The position numbers and the translations under genes are program-made. 64,000 nucleotides of DNA, from NCBI GenBank assembly GCA_050250855.1, contig JBFWNW010000001.1:224001-288000 (forward strand), read 5' to 3'. This document shows, piece after piece, positions 31,223-38,627 of the stretch. Below the pieces are notes generated by a model. That model saw nothing but the letters and a program-made list of their open reading frames with translations, was not told where the DNA came from and ran no database searches. The DNA comes from Candidatus Babeliales bacterium (lineage in GTDB: Bacteria > Babelota > Babeliae > Babelales > JACPOV01). Each line of letters begins with the position of its first letter. The first letter of the stretch is position 1.

Positions 31223-32591
31223 GTTTTTATTTTTTATAATTCTTGTGTTTGCTATGCAAGTACAAGCTCGTTCAAAGCGCGATGTAAAACAGCTTCCCCT
31301 TTCATCTCTTGTTGGTGCAGATATTGTACTTAAAAAAAAATTTTCAAAAGCATGGTGCAGTAGAAATGGTTTAGCATTTCTGTGTAATCATTGCCTTGCT
31401 AAAAGCAAGACATTTTTAGTGCCACGAGAAGCTTGTGTACAATCTCGTTTGCATAATCAGATCAAACAGTTTGAATCGTTACATAAAGAAAAACAGTTAG
31501 CATCATTTTTTTCATTTATGGTGCGCGTTTTGCTACAAGAAAAATTACTGAACTCCCCTGATGAATGGGTTATAAAAAGTCATGGTGGTTTTATGATTTC
31601 ATCAGCAGATCAGCCAGGAAAGCAGTTGTTTTATCCTTCAAATACACTATCTATTAAAACGCATGCTAATGCATTATATCTTGATAATAAGCGTTGTGAT
31701 GCACAAAAAATTATGATAAAACCAGCGCATGGTTATTTGCATTATGATGATTATCATTATCAAGGAGCGTTTTTGGTTGTCATAGACCAAGAACGTGCTT
31801 ATTTAATAAGTCAGCTTGATATTGAGGATTATATTTTTTCTGTGCTGCGTTGGGAAAGTTGGCCAGGGTGGCCGGTTGAGGTCAATAAAGCATTTGCGAT
31901 TGCTTGCAGAAGTTATTTAATTGCTAAAGTGTTGCAAGCGAATAAAAAAAATAGCTTGTACCACATTAAAAATTCTAATATTCACCAAACCTATAATGGT
32001 ATGCATGGTTGCTATAATTTAAAACAAGCAATTGATGAAACACGCGGCCTCATTTTAGCACACAATAAAAAGCCGATTGAAGCAATGTTTGATTGTTGTT
32101 GTGGTGATGTAATTCCAGCAAAATTGAGTGGCGTGAATTTTAAAAAAGCTCCTTACTTGGCGCGCCGCTATCCGTGTAATTTTTGCAAGCCGTGTAAAAT
32201 TTATGCATGGCGCTTAGAATATTCCGTAAAAGAGTTTCTTGATATTTTGCATCAAGCAGGGTACCCCATCAAAACTATTCTTGATATTGCGGTAGTAAAA
32301 AAAGATTCTGCAGGTGCAGCAAAAGAGATTTTAATACGGGGGAATAATGCCGTGATAACCTTTACCGGCAAGCAGTTTTATTCTTTGCTTACTAAAATAA
32401 AAAGTTACTGTTATACCATAGAAAAAAAAGATGATACGATTATTTTTGATGGCAAGGGCTATGGTCACCACCTTGGCATTTGCCAGTGGGGTGCACGACG
32501 CATGATTGATGAAGGGTGGACCTATGCTTCGATTTTACATTTTTATTATCCGGGCAGTATGTTAATGGAATTAAAAAATACGGTGAGTTGA
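31206..32591 (+). CDS. SpoIID/LytB domain peptidoglycan lytic transglycosylase
   Basis: EDYI.SV...E, KAFAIACRSY, Q.Y.G, GYGHHLGICQWGA, ILHFYYPG; start uncertain. Confidence 0.9.
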   Translation: MVLNSRFLFFIILVFAMQVQARSKRDVKQLPLSSLVGADIVLKKKFSKAWCSRNGLAFLCNHCLAKSKTFLVPREACVQSRLHNQIKQFESLHKEKQLASFFSFMVRVLLQEKLLNSPDEWVIKSHGGFMISSADQPGKQLFYPSNTLSIKTHANALYLDNKRCDAQKIMIKPAHGYLHYDDYHYQGAFLVVIDQERAYLISQLDIEDYIFSVLRWESWPGWPVEVNKAFAIACRSYLIAKVLQANKKNSLYHIKNSNIHQTYNGMHGCYNLKQAIDETRGLILAHNKKPIEAMFDCCCGDVIPAKLSGVNFKKAPYLARRYPCNFCKPCKIYAWRLEYSVKEFLDILHQAGYPIKTILDIAVVKKDSAGAAKEILIRGNNAVITFTGKQFYSLLTKIKSYCYTIEKKDDTIIFDGKGYGHHLGICQWGARRMIDEGWTYASILHFYYPGSMLMELKNTVS

Positions 32592-32595
32592 AGAG

Positions 32596-32718
32596 TGGTT
32601 CGAGACGTTTTTCTACGAAAAACCCTCACCACGAACGGATTTAAAAAATAATTATAGTATTTTAAAACTTACAAAATTAATCTCCCGTTCGTGGTGAGGA
32701 ACGAAGTGTCTCGAACCA
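32596..32718. repeat. Paired inverted REP-like palindromic repeat (family A)
   Basis: TGGTTCGAGAC...CTCACCACGAACGG / CCGTTCGTGGTGAG...GTCTCGAACCA arms around an AT-rich spacer; relatives at 59483-59661. Confidence 0.85.
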
Positions 32719-32747
32719 TAACGGGATTTTTAGTAAAAGGGTTTGGT

Positions 32748-33206
32748 ATGCCAAATTATAAAGGTCATCTTGTTGGTGGGGCTGCTGCTTTTGGCATAGT
32801 TCTTTATTGCATAAAAAGCAAAAATCCAACTATTATTACTGCGCTTGAATGGTTGTGCTGTGCATTATTGGGCGCCTTGTTTCCTGATATTGATACAAAA
32901 AGCAAGGGACAAAAAATTTTTTACCGAATGGTATTTTTTTCTGTTGTTGTTTTGCTTATACAAATGCGGATACGAGCAGTAGCATTTGTTAGTTTATTAG
33001 CACTTTCACCATTACTCATTCGTCACCGTGGCATTACGCATTCATTATGGTTTATTGTGTTTTTATGCAGTTCTGCATTGGTCTATGCACATATATTTGC
33101 ACCAGCATACGCGCAGCTTGTTTTTTTTGATGCGTTGTTTTTTTGTGCAGGGGCAATTTCTCATTTGTGGTTGGATCTGGGTTTACGGAGAATGTTGCGT
33201 ATTTAA
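32748..33206 (+). CDS. Membrane metal-dependent hydrolase (YdjM-like)
   Basis: MP.YKGH, LFPDID, HRGITHS, SHLWLD; start at ATG 32748 because the upstream extension lies in the repeat. Confidence 0.9.
   Translation: MPNYKGHLVGGAAAFGIVLYCIKSKNPTIITALEWLCCALLGALFPDIDTKSKGQKIFYRMVFFSVVVLLIQMRIRAVAFVSLLALSPLLIRHRGITHSLWFIVFLCSSALVYAHIFAPAYAQLVFFDALFFCAGAISHLWLDLGLRRMLRI
33165..33206 (+). repeat. Repeat R0: 3' end of the hydrolase gene, ending LWLDLGLRRMLRI*
   Basis: ttgtggttggatctgggtttacggagaatgttgcgtatttaa; similar copies R1-R3 downstream. Confidence 0.9.
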
Positions 33207-33853
33207 TGAAATGGAAAAGCTGGTGTTCCCACTGTTACAAGAACAAGAAATGTTACAAAGAAACAAGCTATACAACAAATCACACAAGGTGTAACTATTA
33301 CGCAGTTACAACAGTAGGTCATCTTATGCAGTTTTTCATTATCTTTGGGTATTTGAGTTGCACAGTATAGAGCAAGCTCATTTATTTTGGTTTTAGGGAC
33401 AACAATATTTTGCTTTTCAAGATCATTCTTTATTTTTTCTGAGAAAAAGGTTGTGTCATTGCCAGCAGAGTAAGAGCTATGGAATAGTTTTCTAGGAGAA
33501 AAGATTATTTTTGATGCTAGATTGTGTTGTTTTTTTAAAAACTCTAAACATTCTTTCTGACGTTCTTCATTTTTAGTATATATTTTCCAAGCATTATCTT
33601 TTGTTAAAGGCATTTCCAATTTAATTAATTTTTTACAATCTTTATTAAGTTTTGTATCAAAACTTGTTTTATCAAACTGGGTAAAGTTTTTGGCAATATA
33701 TTGTGCCGTTAACTTTTTTAATGAGGTGACAGTTTTTTGTTGTTTCATTGGGATAACAATTTCATCATTGTCTTGTGGCAACAGATTATACTTATGTTCC
33801 ATTGCATACGAGAGTGTGCTTAGTGTGAGTAGTAAAATTATGTAATTTTTCAT
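33203..33853 (-). CDS. Array paralog 1: exported protein with C-terminal Cys-rich TM anchor
   Basis: MKNYIILLLTLSTLSYAME, SLKKLTAQYI, RQKECLEF; hydrophobic tail. Confidence 0.85.
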   Translation of the reverse strand: MKNYIILLLTLSTLSYAMEHKYNLLPQDNDEIVIPMKQQKTVTSLKKLTAQYIAKNFTQFDKTSFDTKLNKDCKKLIKLEMPLTKDNAWKIYTKNEERQKECLEFLKKQHNLASKIIFSPRKLFHSSYSAGNDTTFFSEKIKNDLEKQNIVVPKTKINELALYCATQIPKDNEKLHKMTYCCNCVIVTPCVICCIACFFVTFLVLVTVGTPAFPFH

Positions 33854-33880
33854 GATTAATCTTTTTTGTTATGTTTTTAT

Positions 33881-33921
33881 CTGTGGTTAGATTTTGGTTT
33901 GCAAGAATGTTACGGATTTAA
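33881..33921 (+). repeat. Repeat R1 (copy of hydrolase 3' end, 1-nt deletion)
   Basis: ctgtggttagattttggtttgcaagaatgttacggatttaa. Confidence 0.9.
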
Positions 33922-33922
33922 C

Positions 33923-34561
33923 TTACTGATCAGATGATCCATTTATAATAATATATATGAGAGCAATTAACCCTGAAAGGACAAAGCAAGAGCATGTGGC
34001 CATGGTTCTTTTTTCAAAACACCAACGAATTTTTTTCATCTGTTCATGGGTGAGTTCTTTATTGCACTTTTCTAAACAATAAGAAGTAATTTGTTGTTGT
34101 TGCTCGGGCGTTAATTGAGAGAAATTGTTTAGGCTTTTTTGAAAAAAATTTTTCCAATTTATAAGTGTTGTTTTTTCCTTTATATCATCCATGTCGCTTT
34201 TTATTAGACCAAGCTGGCTGGTATCAGGTCGATTAAGCTGATAAAAAAAATCAAGGCATTCTTGTTCTCGTTTTGGATGTTTAGTATACATTGCAATTGC
34301 ATTATCATTGGTCAATGGCAGTTCCAATTCAACTAATTCTTTACAGTCTTCATTAAGTTTTGTATCAAAACTTGTTTTGTCAAACTGGGTAAAGTTTTTA
34401 GCAATGTATTGTGCCGTTAGCTTTTTTAATGAGGTGACAGCTTTTTGTTGTTTCATTGGTAGAGCAATTTCATCATTATGCTGTAGCAAGAGTTGATACT
34501 CTGGTTCCATTGCATACGAGAGTGTGTTTAGTGTGACCAGTAAAATTATGTACTTTTTCAT
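33923..34561 (-). CDS. Array paralog 2
   Basis: N-terminal half near-identical to paralog 1; REQECLDF; C-terminal TM. Confidence 0.85.
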   Translation of the reverse strand: MKKYIILLVTLNTLSYAMEPEYQLLLQHNDEIALPMKQQKAVTSLKKLTAQYIAKNFTQFDKTSFDTKLNEDCKELVELELPLTNDNAIAMYTKHPKREQECLDFFYQLNRPDTSQLGLIKSDMDDIKEKTTLINWKNFFQKSLNNFSQLTPEQQQQITSYCLEKCNKELTHEQMKKIRWCFEKRTMATCSCFVLSGLIALIYIIINGSSDQ

Positions 34562-34581
34562 GATTAATCTTTTTTTATCCT

Positions 34582-34620
34582 TGGTTAGATCTTGGTTTGC
34601 GGAGAATGCTACGGATTTAA
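34582..34620 (+). repeat. Repeat R2 (copy of hydrolase 3' end)
   Basis: tggttagatcttggtttgcggagaatgctacggatttaa = WLDLGLRRMLRI*. Confidence 0.9.
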
Positions 34621-35276
34621 TGAAAGAGAGACACAGCTGCGAAAACTGAAGAAAGAAAGCAGAATGCTGTCGGTACGGCGCAAAGTATTTGGCACCATCC
34701 GGCTCTATTCATAGTTATCATAACGGGATTATTTTTTTTAGCAGGAACAGGATACACAGCGCCCTGAAAGCCGTTTAAATTTTCTTTATGTGCTTTTTTG
34801 GCATCCCGCTGAAGTTTTTCTGCGCATTTATTTATAATTCGTTGTCTTAAATGTGAAGCCACTAGGATATTTTTTTCTTGCAGATGTTGATCTATTTGTT
34901 TGAGAAAATACTCCTTGTTGTATTTTTTCTTATAAGACTTATCTATGAATTCGTTCTGAACAGACCATGCGTGAAACGAAATTTGATTTACAGGTTTAAA
35001 TTCATACTGTGTTACCAAAAATTGTTCACACTCTTGTTCTCGTTTTTCATATTCAGTAAATATTTTCCATACATTGTCAGGATTTAATGGTAGTTCTCGT
35101 TCAATAAGATCTATACAATCTTGCGGGATGGTATCTGGTTTGATTTGTGCTTCGAATTGTTTGTAATTTTGTGTAACAGAGAGAACAGCAAGAGTTTTTA
35201 GTGAAGGAAATTCATTAGGTTCCATTGCATATGAAACGGTGCTTAGCGTGACCAGTAAAATTATATATTTTTTCAT
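34617..35276 (-). CDS. Array paralog 3
   Basis: SYAME, PSLKTLAVL, ELPL..DN, REQECEQF; C-terminal TM. Confidence 0.85.
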   Translation of the reverse strand: MKKYIILLVTLSTVSYAMEPNEFPSLKTLAVLSVTQNYKQFEAQIKPDTIPQDCIDLIERELPLNPDNVWKIFTEYEKREQECEQFLVTQYEFKPVNQISFHAWSVQNEFIDKSYKKKYNKEYFLKQIDQHLQEKNILVASHLRQRIINKCAEKLQRDAKKAHKENLNGFQGAVYPVPAKKNNPVMITMNRAGWCQILCAVPTAFCFLSSVFAAVSLFH

Positions 35277-35284
35277 GGTAGCCT

Positions 35285-35326
35285 TTGTGGTTAGATCTGG
35301 GTTTACGAAGAATGTTGCGGATTTAA
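35285..35326 (+). repeat. Repeat R3 (copy of hydrolase 3' end)
   Basis: ttgtggttagatctgggtttacgaagaatgttgcggatttaa = LWLDLGLRRMLRI*. Confidence 0.9.
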
Positions 35327-35330
35327 GTAT

Positions 35331-35885
35331 CTAGTTTAAAGATAAAGCTATTACCATACCAAAATATAAAAATGGAAATCCCATACCGCATATTATCAAA
35401 GCAATGTTTCCACAAAAGTCTGATGCTTCATTAAGGTTCCATTGTAGTTCTTTATGGCATTGGTGTGCTATAGTAATAAGCTTTGTTTTATCATGTATAA
35501 TTGTATGCTTTTTAGCATCATTTTCTATTTTATTGTAAAAATAGTTTTCATTATATTCATTTAAATATTTTCTTTGTTCTTTTTGAGTTAAAGAAGGAAC
35601 TTTATCGCTACAATATGCATTGACCAAAAATTGCTCACACTCTTGTTCTCGTTTTTTATATTCAGTAAATATTTTCCATACATTGTCAGGATTCAATGGT
35701 AGTTCTCGTTCAATAAGATCTATACAATCTTGCGGAATAATATCTGGTTTGATTTGTGTTTCGAATTGTTTGTAATTTCGTGCAACAGTCAGAACAGCAA
35801 GAGTTTTTAATGAAGGAAATTCATTAGATTCCATTGCATATGAAACGGTGCTTAGTGTGAGCAATAAAAATATGTATATTTTCAT
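35331..35885 (-). CDS. Array paralog 4
   Basis: N-terminal half near-identical to paralog 3; C-terminal TM. Confidence 0.85.
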   Translation of the reverse strand: MKIYIFLLLTLSTVSYAMESNEFPSLKTLAVLTVARNYKQFETQIKPDIIPQDCIDLIERELPLNPDNVWKIFTEYKKREQECEQFLVNAYCSDKVPSLTQKEQRKYLNEYNENYFYNKIENDAKKHTIIHDKTKLITIAHQCHKELQWNLNEASDFCGNIALIICGMGFPFLYFGMVIALSLN

Positions 35886-35893
35886 GTTGATTT

Positions 35894-36427
35894 TTATAAT
35901 TCACTAATAGTATAAATAATATATCCCATGAATACGCATGTCAGTAAGCAGTAAAAATTACCGATATATTGATAGCAAGATATTTTTCTTTTTCTTGATT
36001 CATCATGGAATGTTCTTTCTACAAGTTCAGGAATTGCTATGCTTATTTCATCAGGTTCTAGTTGTTGGTTTTGTAATGTAGTATAAAAAAATTCTCGAAT
36101 ATGTTTTTCTTGCTCCTGAGAGCTAGTATATATAAAATTGTCTTTAAAATAAATGGGTGGAGAATTATGTTGATAAAAGAATTCTAAACATTCTTGTTCT
36201 CTGTCTTGATTATGCTTAAAGATGTTTAAAACATTATCGTCTGTTAATGGTTTTTCCCATGCAATTGCTTTTTTGCATTCTCGGGGTAGTGTTGCGGTAT
36301 TATTAATTTTTTCTTCAAAGTTTTTATAATTTTTTCCAATATATTGACTAGTTAATTTTTTTAAAGAAGGTATTTCCATGCTAAGCGTTATGGTGTTTAC
36401 CAGAAAAAAAATAAATTTTTTTTTCAA
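35894..36427 (-). CDS. Array paralog 5 (divergent, first transcribed)
   Basis: TTG start after GGAGAGG; LS-MEIPSLKKLTSQYI, PLT.DN, REQECLEF; C-terminal TM. Confidence 0.8.
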   Translation of the reverse strand: MKKKFIFFLVNTITLSMEIPSLKKLTSQYIGKNYKNFEEKINNTATLPRECKKAIAWEKPLTDDNVLNIFKHNQDREQECLEFFYQHNSPPIYFKDNFIYTSSQEQEKHIREFFYTTLQNQQLEPDEISIAIPELVERTFHDESRKRKISCYQYIGNFYCLLTCVFMGYIIYTISEL

Positions 36428-36544
36428 TTGTACCCTCTCCAAAACAAGTTTACTAGTATAGGCTTTTTTTTAATATCACCTATTCATAGTTTATTTTGCA
36501 AGATTTCTTGCTAGTTTTTTCTAGCAAGATAGGCTTTAATACAA

Positions 36545-36600
36545 AAAAAATAACAAAGCTCGCAATAATGCAAACGTTACTGCGAGCTTTGTTATTTTTT
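36545..36600. terminator. Long inverted repeat, probable terminator
   Basis: AAAAAATAACAAAGCTCGCA / TGCGAGCTTTGTTATTTTTT. Confidence 0.8.
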
Positions 36601-36623
36601 ATTCTGATTCAGTTTTAAGAATT

Positions 36624-37037
36624 TTAGTAATCGCAGCAATTATCTTTGTATCTCTCATATTGACCAATAATATCCTTATTTAAGAATATAGTACTTATGC
36701 CACCAGCAGTTAATGCTAAACCAATAGTCGCCATTGCAGAGCCACCTATTCTTGCCGCAACAGATTTGAGCTCCGAAAATATTTTAGAGCATAAACCTTG
36801 GTCTAAGATTTCTTTCTCTGGATGAGCTTGAAGTGTTTGTTCTACACCTTTTTTGACTAATAATAGGCCAATGACAGAAAGGCCTATGCCAAAAGCGTTT
36901 AAGGCTTTTACTCTCGTGTCATTACTGCTAGGGGTATAATACCATTGATCGAATTTTTGATACACATTAGAGCAATTTAGCTGAAAGACTTGAGAGCTTG
37001 TTATGAGCAAAAAAAGTAGAAGAGACTTTAAATTCAT
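36624..37037 (-). CDS. Hypothetical exported/membrane protein
   Basis: Signal-like N-terminus MNLKSLLLFLL plus two Gly-rich hydrophobic segments. Confidence 0.7.
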   Translation of the reverse strand: MNLKSLLLFLLITSSQVFQLNCSNVYQKFDQWYYTPSSNDTRVKALNAFGIGLSVIGLLLVKKGVEQTLQAHPEKEILDQGLCSKIFSELKSVAARIGGSAMATIGLALTAGGISTIFLNKDIIGQYERYKDNCCDY

Positions 37038-37244
37038 AAGATTTACCTTATTTTGTAGAGTGAAATAATGCATAAATAATACGGTTTTTGTGACTTTTAG
37101 TCAAGTTCAAACAATGCTCATTAGACTAACTCTTGTTTTTTTTGTATCAGTGAGATACACCAAGTATAGAAATACAGTTTATGGAGCCGGGTGAGGATGT
37201 CAGTAAAAAATTGTAAGCAGGTAAGAGCTACCCTCTCCCGTTTT

Positions 37245-38627
37245 TTAATTCTTAAAATAAAGTAGAGCTGTGCTTACCAAGACGCCAGGAATAAGAGGAA
37301 TTAGTGGTGTGCCCAATAAAGGCCATAAAGCAGAAACGGTAGCGCCGGCAATTAAAGCAGTAAGTGCGGTAGAGCTTTTTATAGATTTTCCATAAAGTGC
37401 TGCAACAACAACGGGACTGAATGATGCCCCTAATCCTGACCATGCATAGGTGACAAGACCCATGACGGTTGCGCTATTGCGGTAGCCAATCGCATAACCA
37501 AAGAGGGCAACCAAAATAATGCTGCAGCGTGAAACCCAGATTAGTTCTTTATCATGCGCTTTGTGCGTAATGATTTTTTTATAAAAATCTTCAGTGATAG
37601 AATTTGCAGCAACCAGAATCTGCGTATCAATTGTTGACATCGTAGCAGCAAGAATTGCGCATAAAATAATGCCACCAAAAAATGGATTAAAAAGCATTTT
37701 AACCAGCTGTACAAATACCATTTCACTTCTAGCCAAATGAGGCGTAAGGCCCATGCCAACAAGTCCTACGGCAACAGCACTGAGTAATGAAATTACAAGC
37801 CACGTCATACCCAGATATTTTGCTCGTTTTGTATGTTCAGGATTATCAATGCCCATATAGTTAACCACTACATGCGGCATCCCCAAATAACCAACACCCC
37901 AGACAATACCATTAAGCATTTCTATCAATGTTGTAATATTACCAGAGGGAATTAATGATAATGAAATATTATTGTGCGCTGCATAGGATATAATTGGCTG
38001 TAAGCTTCCTAAAGTATATAAACTGATAATTGGTACTATAGCAATCATGGCAAGCAAAAACATTCCTTGAAAAAAATGATTCCATACAAGGGCAATAAAG
38101 CCACCGCATAAAATATAAAGAAGTGATGCACCAAGGCCAATAACCATGCCGGTGTGATAATTAATACCAAAGACCGCTTCAAATACGCGGCCCATGCCTG
38201 TTAATCCTGCGCCAATATAAAAACTAAAAAAGAACATAAGAATAATACTAGAAGCAATCCCTAGATAGCCTTTTTTGTCGTTGAAGCGTTTTTCTAAGAA
38301 AGATGAAAGGGTAACCGTTTGATACTGCTCGGTGGCAACACGTAATTTTTGTGCAATAAAATGCCAGCTTAAAAACATACCGCCAACAAGACCTATGGCA
38401 ATCCAAGCACCTTCTAGTCCTTGCGTATAGATTGTTGCCGGAAATGCCATAAAAAGCCATGCGCTCATATCACTTGCATGCGCAGCTATAGCAGTAACCC
38501 AATAGTTAACGCCACGGTTGCCCAGCATAAATTCTGAGGAAGTTTTTGTTTTAAGGTAGCTAACAATACCTATCAAAAAAAGAATGCCAAAATATAGTAA
38601 AAATGCGACCAAAAGTGCTATATTCAT
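37245..38627 (-). CDS. putP: Sodium:solute (proline) symporter
   Basis: ASDMSAW, GYLGMPH, AILAATMSTID.Q, AWSGLGASF.P. Confidence 0.9.
   Translation of the reverse strand: MNIALLVAFLLYFGILFLIGIVSYLKTKTSSEFMLGNRGVNYWVTAIAAHASDMSAWLFMAFPATIYTQGLEGAWIAIGLVGGMFLSWHFIAQKLRVATEQYQTVTLSSFLEKRFNDKKGYLGIASSIILMFFFSFYIGAGLTGMGRVFEAVFGINYHTGMVIGLGASLLYILCGGFIALVWNHFFQGMFLLAMIAIVPIISLYTLGSLQPIISYAAHNNISLSLIPSGNITTLIEMLNGIVWGVGYLGMPHVVVNYMGIDNPEHTKRAKYLGMTWLVISLLSAVAVGLVGMGLTPHLARSEMVFVQLVKMLFNPFFGGIILCAILAATMSTIDTQILVAANSITEDFYKKIITHKAHDKELIWVSRCSIILVALFGYAIGYRNSATVMGLVTYAWSGLGASFSPVVVAALYGKSIKSSTALTALIAGATVSALWPLLGTPLIPLIPGVLVSTALLYFKN

Follow-up and report, generated by a model that had tools for sequence, protein, structure and literature searches.

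How does the last piece of a protein-coding gene, stop codon included, come to stand between the genes of a neighboring array? This question is raised by a locus in a 64,000-nucleotide (nt) stretch of contig JBFWNW010000001.1 from a Candidatus Babeliales bacterium; we call this stretch the window and the genome, which is 1.22 Mb and 95% complete, G000. A plus-strand gene for a YdjM/YbcI-family membrane hydrolase is followed by five paralogous genes, g1 to g5, which occupy the space between it and a sodium-solute symporter gene and all lie on the minus strand. The last 12 codons of the hydrolase and its stop codon recur among these paralogs, on the same strand as the hydrolase itself. We refer to the working 3' end of the gene as R0 and to the orphan copies as R1, R2, and R3 (coordinates are collected in Table 1). 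Two further copies, RA0 (L024 4705-4744) and RAB (L024 5404-5442), lie at the corresponding locus, L024, of a sister species, G001, the sole other species of the genus available. The copies have diverged in a way that spares the protein sequence they would encode, and they may well be the junction scars of a small gene island that was built by serial recombination of units into the hydrolase end.

The three orphans of G000 differ in their state of preservation. Both R2 and R3 translate exactly to WLDLGLRRMLRI*, the end of the hydrolase. R3 differs from R0 by TTG>TTA, CGG>CGA, and CGT>CGG, and R2 by TTG>TTA, CTG>CTT, TTA>TTG, TTG>CTA, and CGT>CGG; the codon preceding Trp in R2 encodes Pro, not Leu. 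In R1, CTG>TTT replaces a Leu with a Phe, and 1 nt is deleted from the first Arg codon. In G001, RA0 carries a 1-nt insertion, and RAB is intact and encodes WLDLGLRRMLRI followed by TAG. Since the unit of homology starts at the Leu/Trp codons, the repeat is ~42 to 45 nt long. An earlier sequence-only reading of this locus had reported the recurrence at three plus-strand sites, the codon differences of each copy from the gene, and the placement of each copy between two minus-strand paralogs. Our analysis confirmed all three points, and the start at 33881 given there for R1 includes the preceding Leu codon.

The position of the copies is as regular as their sequence. R1, R2, and R3 are each flanked on both sides by minus-strand paralogs, and each copy stands directly after the stop of the right-hand gene and 10 to 30 nt ahead of the start of the left-hand gene, so that it takes up most of the space separating the stop of one paralog from the ribosome-binding region of the next. 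The right-hand borders are exact, with all six ends (R0 and the two copies of G001 included) falling at a hydrolase-frame stop codon (TAA or TAG), and the left borders lie within ~3 nt of one point. The neighbors of the copies vary, with three kinds of sequence on the right and two or three on the left. The pattern was found nowhere else in the 1.22 Mb of G000, and in G001 it is likewise confined to the hydrolase locus. The hydrolase from which the copies derive is present in 40 of the 41 related genomes searched, it is full length here, and its tail aligns with the tails of its relatives. Across these relatives the tail truly belongs to the protein and varies moderately, with WLDLG followed by a basic stretch. 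A hydrolase encoded on a 12.6-kb contig of the same genus, P0003, shows 68% identity and has the tail LGIRRVFRI.

Variation among the six copies (R0, R1, R2, R3, RA0, and RAB) follows the reading frame of the hydrolase. Eleven columns vary and all are silent in that frame; nine are third positions, two are first positions of Leu codons, and none is a second position. The probability that at least 9 of 11 variable columns fall at third positions is 1.4e-4. A random single change in the copies would be silent with a probability of 0.26 to 0.33, and with six mutation settings, each simulated 400,000 times, 11 silent columns out of 11 never arose (simulated P < 2.5e-6). Five columns vary among the non-working copies only, and all five are silent (P 0.0007-0.003). 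When the copies are translated in the six frames, the hydrolase frame contains 0 variable residues and the other five contain 2 to 9. The low value belongs to the minus-strand frame that shares its third positions with the hydrolase frame (2 conservative changes in 12 residues), and the remaining four frames have 7 to 9 variable residues. Changes at the protein level are confined to the decayed copies, namely, the L>F substitution in R1 and one frameshift each in R1 and RA0; the Phe codon TTT of R1 is the product expected from mixing the Leu codons TTG and CTT. Many of the variable columns fail the four-gamete test, so variants were either shuffled among copies or hit repeatedly. Divergence regardless of the parent frame, which is what a plain tandem duplication should produce, is not what these copies display. 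The sequence-only reading had argued that neutral decay would not have spared the protein sequence; the bias is statistically significant and extends to the copies in G001, which that reading did not include.

We compared the locus with those of relatives (G001 and, among others, G002, G003, G007, and G008, with G002 and G007 belonging to other genera). The hydrolase and the symporter stand back to back in G002, so the array is an insertion. In G001 the order is a hydrolase ending in WLDLGFKKMFRI*, an AAA ATPase gene on the plus strand, RA0, a paralog that we call gene A, RAB, a second paralog (gene B), a gene of 612 residues, and the symporter. Thus, five paralogs in G000 correspond to two paralogs, an AAA ATPase gene, and the 612-residue gene in G001, and the last of these is absent from G000. 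An invariant array would have spoken against the sequence-only reading; in the sole relative that carries the array, its content differs. Local copies of the hydrolase tail, sought in the ~8 to 10 kb downstream of the gene at each of 26 loci, were found in G000 (2), G001 (1), and G007 (1) and at none of the other 23; shuffled tails gave a mean of 0 to 0.1 matches. The copy in G007 is of a different character. It has an 18-nt identical core within a weak homology over 16 codons, 7 of 16 residues are changed in the hydrolase frame, and it lies inside the coding end of a second minus-strand paralog, so that it has the appearance expected of a plain duplicate.

The array and the genomes that carry it differ in age. 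Between G000 and G001, the core genes are saturated at silent sites: fourfold-site identity is 0.15 for the hydrolase, 0.44 for the symporter, and 0.27 for SpoIID, and third-position identity is 0.40 to 0.48. The cassette genes are unsaturated, with fourfold-site identities of 0.76 (g1/gene A) and 0.72 (g3/gene B), and all three of their codon positions are similarly and modestly diverged (identity 0.74-0.89). This lower silent divergence indicates that the array, tail copies included, has a more recent ancestor than the genomes do, which implies transfer between lineages. DNA identity between the two species is 67% over the body of the hydrolase gene and steps up to 78% at ~33155, the left edge of the copy, and beyond. 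R0 is identical to RA0 at 33 of 39 positions and to the working hydrolase end of G001 at 27 of 39, and the latter resembles the rest of the hydrolase body in its divergence from G000. This places the left border of the transferred segment at the tail copy. A donor of the working tail of G001 was not found among 20 loci. Further to the right, R2 and RAB are identical at 34 of 39 positions, with silent differences only, within a collinear 79% alignment. The leader between the copy and the next start codon cannot be aligned between the species, and the copy itself is retained. The type of sequence to the left of R2 differs from that to the left of RAB, and these junctions may have formed independently.

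The AAA ATPase gene of G001 (L024 3399-4676) lies between the working hydrolase end and RA0, in the opposite orientation to the paralogs, and these two tails share a 12-nt direct repeat, CTGTGGTTAGAT, with which the tail copy begins exactly at its left edge. In an ungapped 39-nt comparison, the working end and the displaced RA0 differ at 13 positions. Among 12 loci of this ATPase family, four lack any flanking repeat of at least 9 nt, seven have 9- to 10-nt AT-rich matches, and G001 alone has a repeat of 12 nt. The ATPase module therefore does not itself generate such repeats. The arrangement indicates that an unrelated gene entered G001 precisely between two copies of the tail.

The ATPase family itself is patchy and multicopy; it occurs in 175 of 261 Babeliales genomes, with up to at least 7 matches per genome, and is absent from G000. 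The best matches to it are 77 to 78% identical and come from distant families. In most of the 12 loci (which include L069 to L079), a conserved palindrome, CCTTGnAAAnT ... AnTTTnCAAGG, stands directly before the ATPase start codon, and in G001 it is doubled, as 43-nt repeats. The ATPase looks like a mobile or self-regulated module.

The window contains no integrase, as the sequence-only reading had noted, and no other recombinase. G000 encodes only two tyrosine recombinases (PF00589), one on contig C1 at ~181 kb beyond the end of the window and one on contig C3. Both score best as XerD and XerC, and with the integron-integrase models, whose cut-off is 265 bits, they reach no more than 137 and 132. 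That reading had also likened the locus to an integron; no site-specific mechanism of this kind was found, with neither an integron integrase nor an attC-like hairpin present. Candidate recombination sites were considered and rejected. An attC site is a ~55- to 140-nt imperfect palindrome that folds as a single strand, and the repeat here is ~42 to 45 nt with no supported fold on either strand. The copies contain a short inverted repeat, TTAGATCYG ... CGGATTTAA, that could suggest a dif-like or attC-like site, but it is weakened by two changes private to R0 and shows no covariation. A likeness of GTTAGAT/ATTTAAC to the core sites of integrons was dropped because the elements are in the wrong order. 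Elsewhere in its genome, G001 encodes four paralogous large serine recombinases of 485 to 486 residues (L086 to L089; 59 to 92% identical), and G000 has none. Three of them (L086, L087, and L089) adjoin a conserved gene of ~380 to 450 residues, and they appear to represent small integrative elements. No link between them and the hydrolase site was found.

We also scanned G000 for other arrays punctuated by gene ends, as the sequence-only reading had proposed, using 7-residue words from the last 12 residues of each of 1432 open reading frames and accepting matches within 10 kb. No comparable case emerged. The other matches were mostly the ends of neighboring full-length paralogs, and the six short-range cases that were opened proved to be plain repeats that copy the sequence past the stop codon as well, some with replacement changes.

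These observations can be joined in a model of serial accretion at the gene end, which we consider about as likely as not. A unit would consist of ~42 to 45 nt of gene end, one minus-strand gene, and a short leader, and it would recombine into the hydrolase end through the conserved patch (C/T)TGTGGTT(A/G)GAT, which encodes LWLD. After entry, the hydrolase would keep a complete end, either carried or left by the unit, and the earlier end would be pushed outwards and remain beside the stop codon of the older unit. Most of the divergence would have accumulated during the copies' time as working ends and in more than one lineage; the differences would be silent because they mostly arose while the copies were translated as the end of a gene. 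Each copy would thus once have been a working end. Displaced copies would then be free to decay, as the frameshifts in R1 and in the hydrolase-proximal RA0 of G001 suggest. Joining could have occurred by RecA-type homologous recombination on 12 to 45 nt of homology or through a recombinase that acted in trans and has since been lost. The order of events, the circular intermediates, and the joining enzyme are inferred. Of the accretion that the sequence-only reading had proposed, the insertion, the differing content, an array younger than the core genome, and the bracketed ATPase gene all speak for it; its integron-like mechanism was not found, and its order of events is a reconstruction. A more ambitious version, which we hold to be doubtful, is that the locus represents an integrase-less miniature cassette system, in which single-gene units with a target-restoring arm of 42 to 45 nt move between species of an obligate intracellular parasite. 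That such units stack at the end of this housekeeping gene by homologous recombination or through a recombinase borrowed in trans is a similarly tentative part of it. In such a system, the arm would be under selection through its cassette, since any cassette whose entry disrupted the host gene would be lost.

Several observations weigh against serial accretion. Only two genomes carry the array, and G000 is represented by one strain, so the history rests on few events. No dedicated recombinase was found in the 95%-complete G000, where only the XerC/XerD-like enzymes and no serine recombinase are present. If the newest unit were always nearest to the hydrolase, R1 should be closest to R0; instead, R3 is (3 versus 7 differences), and g1 precedes g3 in both species. 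Given their collinear alignment, R2 and RAB may be true orthologous orphans, in which case the five-of-five silent columns among non-working copies would reflect constraint in place and not history. Much of the mosaicism of the array stems from exchange between the 5' halves of the paralogs and not from exchange at the copies. Lineage-specific minus-strand genes, many with signal-like starts, stand behind the hydrolase in 6 of 7 other genomes of the family examined, mostly without tail copies, which marks the site as a general hot spot, and the copy in G007 demonstrates that the hydrolase tail can be carried along in an ordinary gene duplication as well. Finally, four DNA sequencing runs of G000, available as Logan contigs of the same strain (the fourth covering small pieces only), yielded 0 alternative joints and 0 other letters; as assembled contigs, they are uninformative on circles and deletion variants.

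Two other explanations have to be set beside accretion. The simpler, which we consider unlikely, is that a single illegitimate duplication copied the gene end locally in tandem with its neighbor and that unequal crossing-over and gene conversion among the paralogs followed, leaving the copies as neutral remnants. The silent-only pattern would then have arisen by chance or as a side effect of the working end occasionally converting the others. Exchange of this kind is evidently ongoing or recent, as the shared 5' halves of the paralogs (83% and 93% DNA identity) attest. Frameshifts affect two of the five non-working copies, R1 carries its L>F change, few changes are private to single orphans (which makes these alone weak evidence against neutrality), and G007 provides an instance in which a duplicated overlapping neighbor took a hydrolase end with it. 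The lack of a recombinase and of structural variants in the contig-level runs of one strain also sits easily with duplication. What it does not accommodate is the silence of all 11 columns, at 0 of 400,000 simulations in each of six settings, and of all five that vary only in non-working copies. Successive snapshots of a single working end would, by our estimate, contain about half replacement changes. Duplication also leaves unexplained the position of the G001 ATPase gene between two copies of the tail, an array younger than the core genome, and exact ends at the stop codon beside unrelated right-hand sequences.

The other explanation, to which we likewise assign a low probability, is that the copies are selected where they stand, as an operon spacer, as a sequence through which a paralog transcript pairs in antisense with the 3' end of the hydrolase messenger RNA, or as a very short peptide. 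The case for it begins with R2 and RAB, whose differences are silent within a collinear alignment, and with the retention of the copy beside a leader that cannot be aligned. It gains from the way the copy fills most of the gap from paralog stop to ribosome-binding region and from the good preservation of the minus-strand frame that shares third positions. A function at the level of nucleic acid does not predict a 3-base period, however, and searches for such a function came back negative. The consensus structure of the copies has 0 pairs on the minus strand; on the plus strand it is weak, and its covariation term is positive. Single-sequence folds are no better than shuffles (z -0.9 to +1.3). 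Rfam at E <= 1 gave six weak matches over 32400-37400, of which none reached its gathering score and none fell on the copies. The copies contain no consensus for a promoter or a terminator, and promoter-like sites numbered 19 against 21.2 expected. The conserved bases are therefore not explained by a minus-strand promoter or RNA motif, the outcome that would have undone the sequence-only reading. Pairing with the hydrolase messenger would be poor in G001, where the working end differs from the copies at 12 to 13 of 39 bases. As for a peptide, the hydrolase frame is closed 2 to 7 codons upstream of each orphan and there is no conserved start. The well-preserved minus frame opens behind a TAA that is forced by the plus-strand T-TAA/TAG, and neither g2 nor g4 is in phase with it. 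On these grounds, and with two of five orphans frameshifted, we do not think that the orphan copies are translated at present.

Integration into gene ends followed by tandem accretion is familiar from prophages, integrative and conjugative elements (ICEs), as well as kilobase-sized islands that carry or borrow a recombinase. In Streptococcus thermophilus, ICESt1, ICESt3, and integrase-less cis-mobilizable elements (CIMEs) accrete in tandem at the 3' end of fda, and the tyrosine integrase of a related ICE acts in trans. As in that system, the elements described here are bounded by repeats of a protein gene's end, lack in some cases a recombinase of their own, and are stacked at one site; unlike in that system, no trans-acting element for the hydrolase site was found in G000 or G001. 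The resemblance to integron arrays lies in promoter-less units of one gene each, all oriented alike and each with a short recombination repeat behind it. In contrast to integrons, there is no IntI, no attI, and no attC-like imperfect palindrome, and the repeat is the coding end of a neighboring gene. Tandem repeats of a single attachment sequence are evident in both species: in G000, three units are delimited by four copies and a fourth (g4 and g5) lies past the last of them, and G001 has three copies, including the working end. The present case is, in our reading, a small, recombinase-less variant of known gene-end accretion.

Two systems described in the literature come close. In Escherichia coli, the element e14 (and phage 21) integrates into the 3' end of icd and provides the gene with a substitute end, and the old end stays on the far side as a C-terminal pseudogene, icdC (PMC13626634). 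The two ends differ mostly synonymously, and recombination between them restores a working gene (PMC13626634). As far as the cited account describes that system, the present locus shares with it a repeat that is the 3' end of the target gene up to the stop, an intact target gene, and ends that differ mainly silently. It departs from e14, there a 15-kb prophage with its own site-specific system and a single insertion, in having one-gene units of ~0.7 kb, three to four deep, without a recombinase. The genomic islands at ssrA in Dehalococcoides stand in rows behind one gene, are split by direct repeats of its 3' end, and vary in content among strains (PMC3146451). Some of them have no integration module and are interpreted as cis-mobilizable passengers, a case of accretion (PMC3146451). 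These islands, which target an RNA gene, have a 20-bp repeat and span kilobases, and 16 of them have a serine-recombinase integration module, dsiB (PMC3146451). To the extent of that description, the hydrolase array matches the ssrA islands in forming a row behind one gene, with direct repeats of the gene's 3' end between units and varying content, and differs from them in that its target is a protein tail, its repeat bears a codon signature, and no such module was found.

Serial accretion, if it is true, would offer Dependentiae/Babeliales, which have small genomes and live within cells, a simple route to gain or swap single, fast-evolving, and probably host-facing membrane proteins. It would also mean that a coding attachment sequence records the constraint under which its copies diverged, so that accretion and plain duplication could be told apart by sequence alone. 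Should the array be only the scar of a duplication, the locus would remain a clear hot spot for exported proteins that are lineage-specific.

Table 1. Features of the hydrolase locus, in positions of the window
Feature	Position	Strand	Remarks
YdjM/YbcI-family membrane hydrolase gene	32748..33206	+	Pfam PF04307, E 1.7e-16; start set at MPNYKGH as in relatives
R0, working gene end, WLDLGLRRMLRI + TAA	33168..33206	+	TAA overlaps g1 stop by 4 nt (TTTAA)
Paralog g1, 216 residues	33203..33853	-	Ortholog of G001 gene A (66% amino acid identity); N-terminal hydrophobic signal-like helix, C-terminal hydrophobic helix
R1, decayed gene-end copy	33884..33921	+	1-nt deletion and L>F
Paralog g2, 212 residues, mosaic	33923..34561	-	5' half 83% DNA-identical to that of g1; 3' half unrelated (repeat family D1)
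R2, intact gene-end copy	34582..34620	+	Same peptide + TAA; overlaps g3 stop by 4 nt
Paralog g3, 219 residues	34617..35276	-	Ortholog of G001 gene B (73% amino acid identity)
R3, intact gene-end copy	35288..35326	+	Same peptide + TAA; 3 silent differences from R0
Paralog g4, 184 residues	35331..35885	-	5' half 93% DNA-identical to that of g3 (repeat family D2)
Paralog g5, 182 residues from TTG start	35894..36442	-	161 residues from later ATG; 8 nt upstream of g4
Terminator-like hairpin, 20 pairs, strong	36549..36596	-	Upstream of g5; inverted repeat I1
Element E, single-copy stretch with 42-nt core	37168..37245		93% identical to stretch at far end of G001 array (L024 6170-6260)

The paralogs that make up the array share one orientation, and g1 to g4 each have a copy of the tail at the 3' end; g5 has none, and no copy lies between g4 and g5. 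A promoter and terminator scan found no minus-strand terminator-like site between the strong hairpin upstream of g5 and g1, which makes it plausible that g5 to g1 may form a single transcription unit. The N-terminal hydrophobic helix of each protein ends in Y-A-M-E; it is followed by a conserved domain of ~80 residues and a middle that varies, and a second hydrophobic helix lies at the C terminus. Between species, their identity at codon positions 1, 2, and 3 is 0.78 to 0.82, 0.86 to 0.89, and 0.74 to 0.75, respectively; such fast change at all codon positions suggests relaxed or diversifying selection on what are probably host-facing membrane proteins.

The family is narrowly distributed. The paralogs have no Pfam match at the curated cut-off, and the family was matched in 3 of 261 genomes of the order, namely, G000, G001, and one weak case at E 4.8e-4. 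A search of 5.8 billion proteins gave three matches, all from G000 or G001. A profile search of 1.84 billion representatives gave 11 matches, of which five are the proteins of G000 and G001 themselves, five are small proteins that share the N-terminal motifs, and the eleventh is a 943-residue repeat protein that is probably spurious. A metagenome scan with g3 returned one weak locus (40% over 45 residues). The Atlas structure model of a paralog has a predicted local distance difference test (pLDDT) score of 0.50 and no usable match. AlphaFold2, run with 12 sequences, predicted an all-helical structure at a pLDDT of 74, and this fold has no PDB match at E <= 0.001 (best 0.67).

At the far border of the array, Element E adjoins the stop of the symporter in G000 and the stop of the 612-residue gene in G001. 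Its core, CAGTTTATGGAGCCGGGTGAGGAT ... CTCTCCCGTT, could form a long-range stem and has no Rfam match. Element E may be the symporter-side border of the shared variable region or, alternatively, a small RNA.

Overlaps between the hydrolase and its neighbors occur in other relatives as well. In G007 (L053) and G008 (L054), the open reading frame of the first minus-strand gene behind the hydrolase extends 185 and 125 nt, respectively, antisense into the coding end of the hydrolase. These frames read the Phe/Leu-rich codons of the hydrolase as a Lys-rich tail, which is either a real overlap or an over-long call of the open reading frame. In G003 the neighboring gene overlaps the hydrolase by 45 nt. 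On the other side of the hydrolase, directly upstream of it, an inverted-repeat element (32596-32720) is a dispersed repeat with ~20 near-identical copies of 40 to 46 nt on four contigs of G000, and it is on this element that the extra contig depth in the sequencing runs falls.

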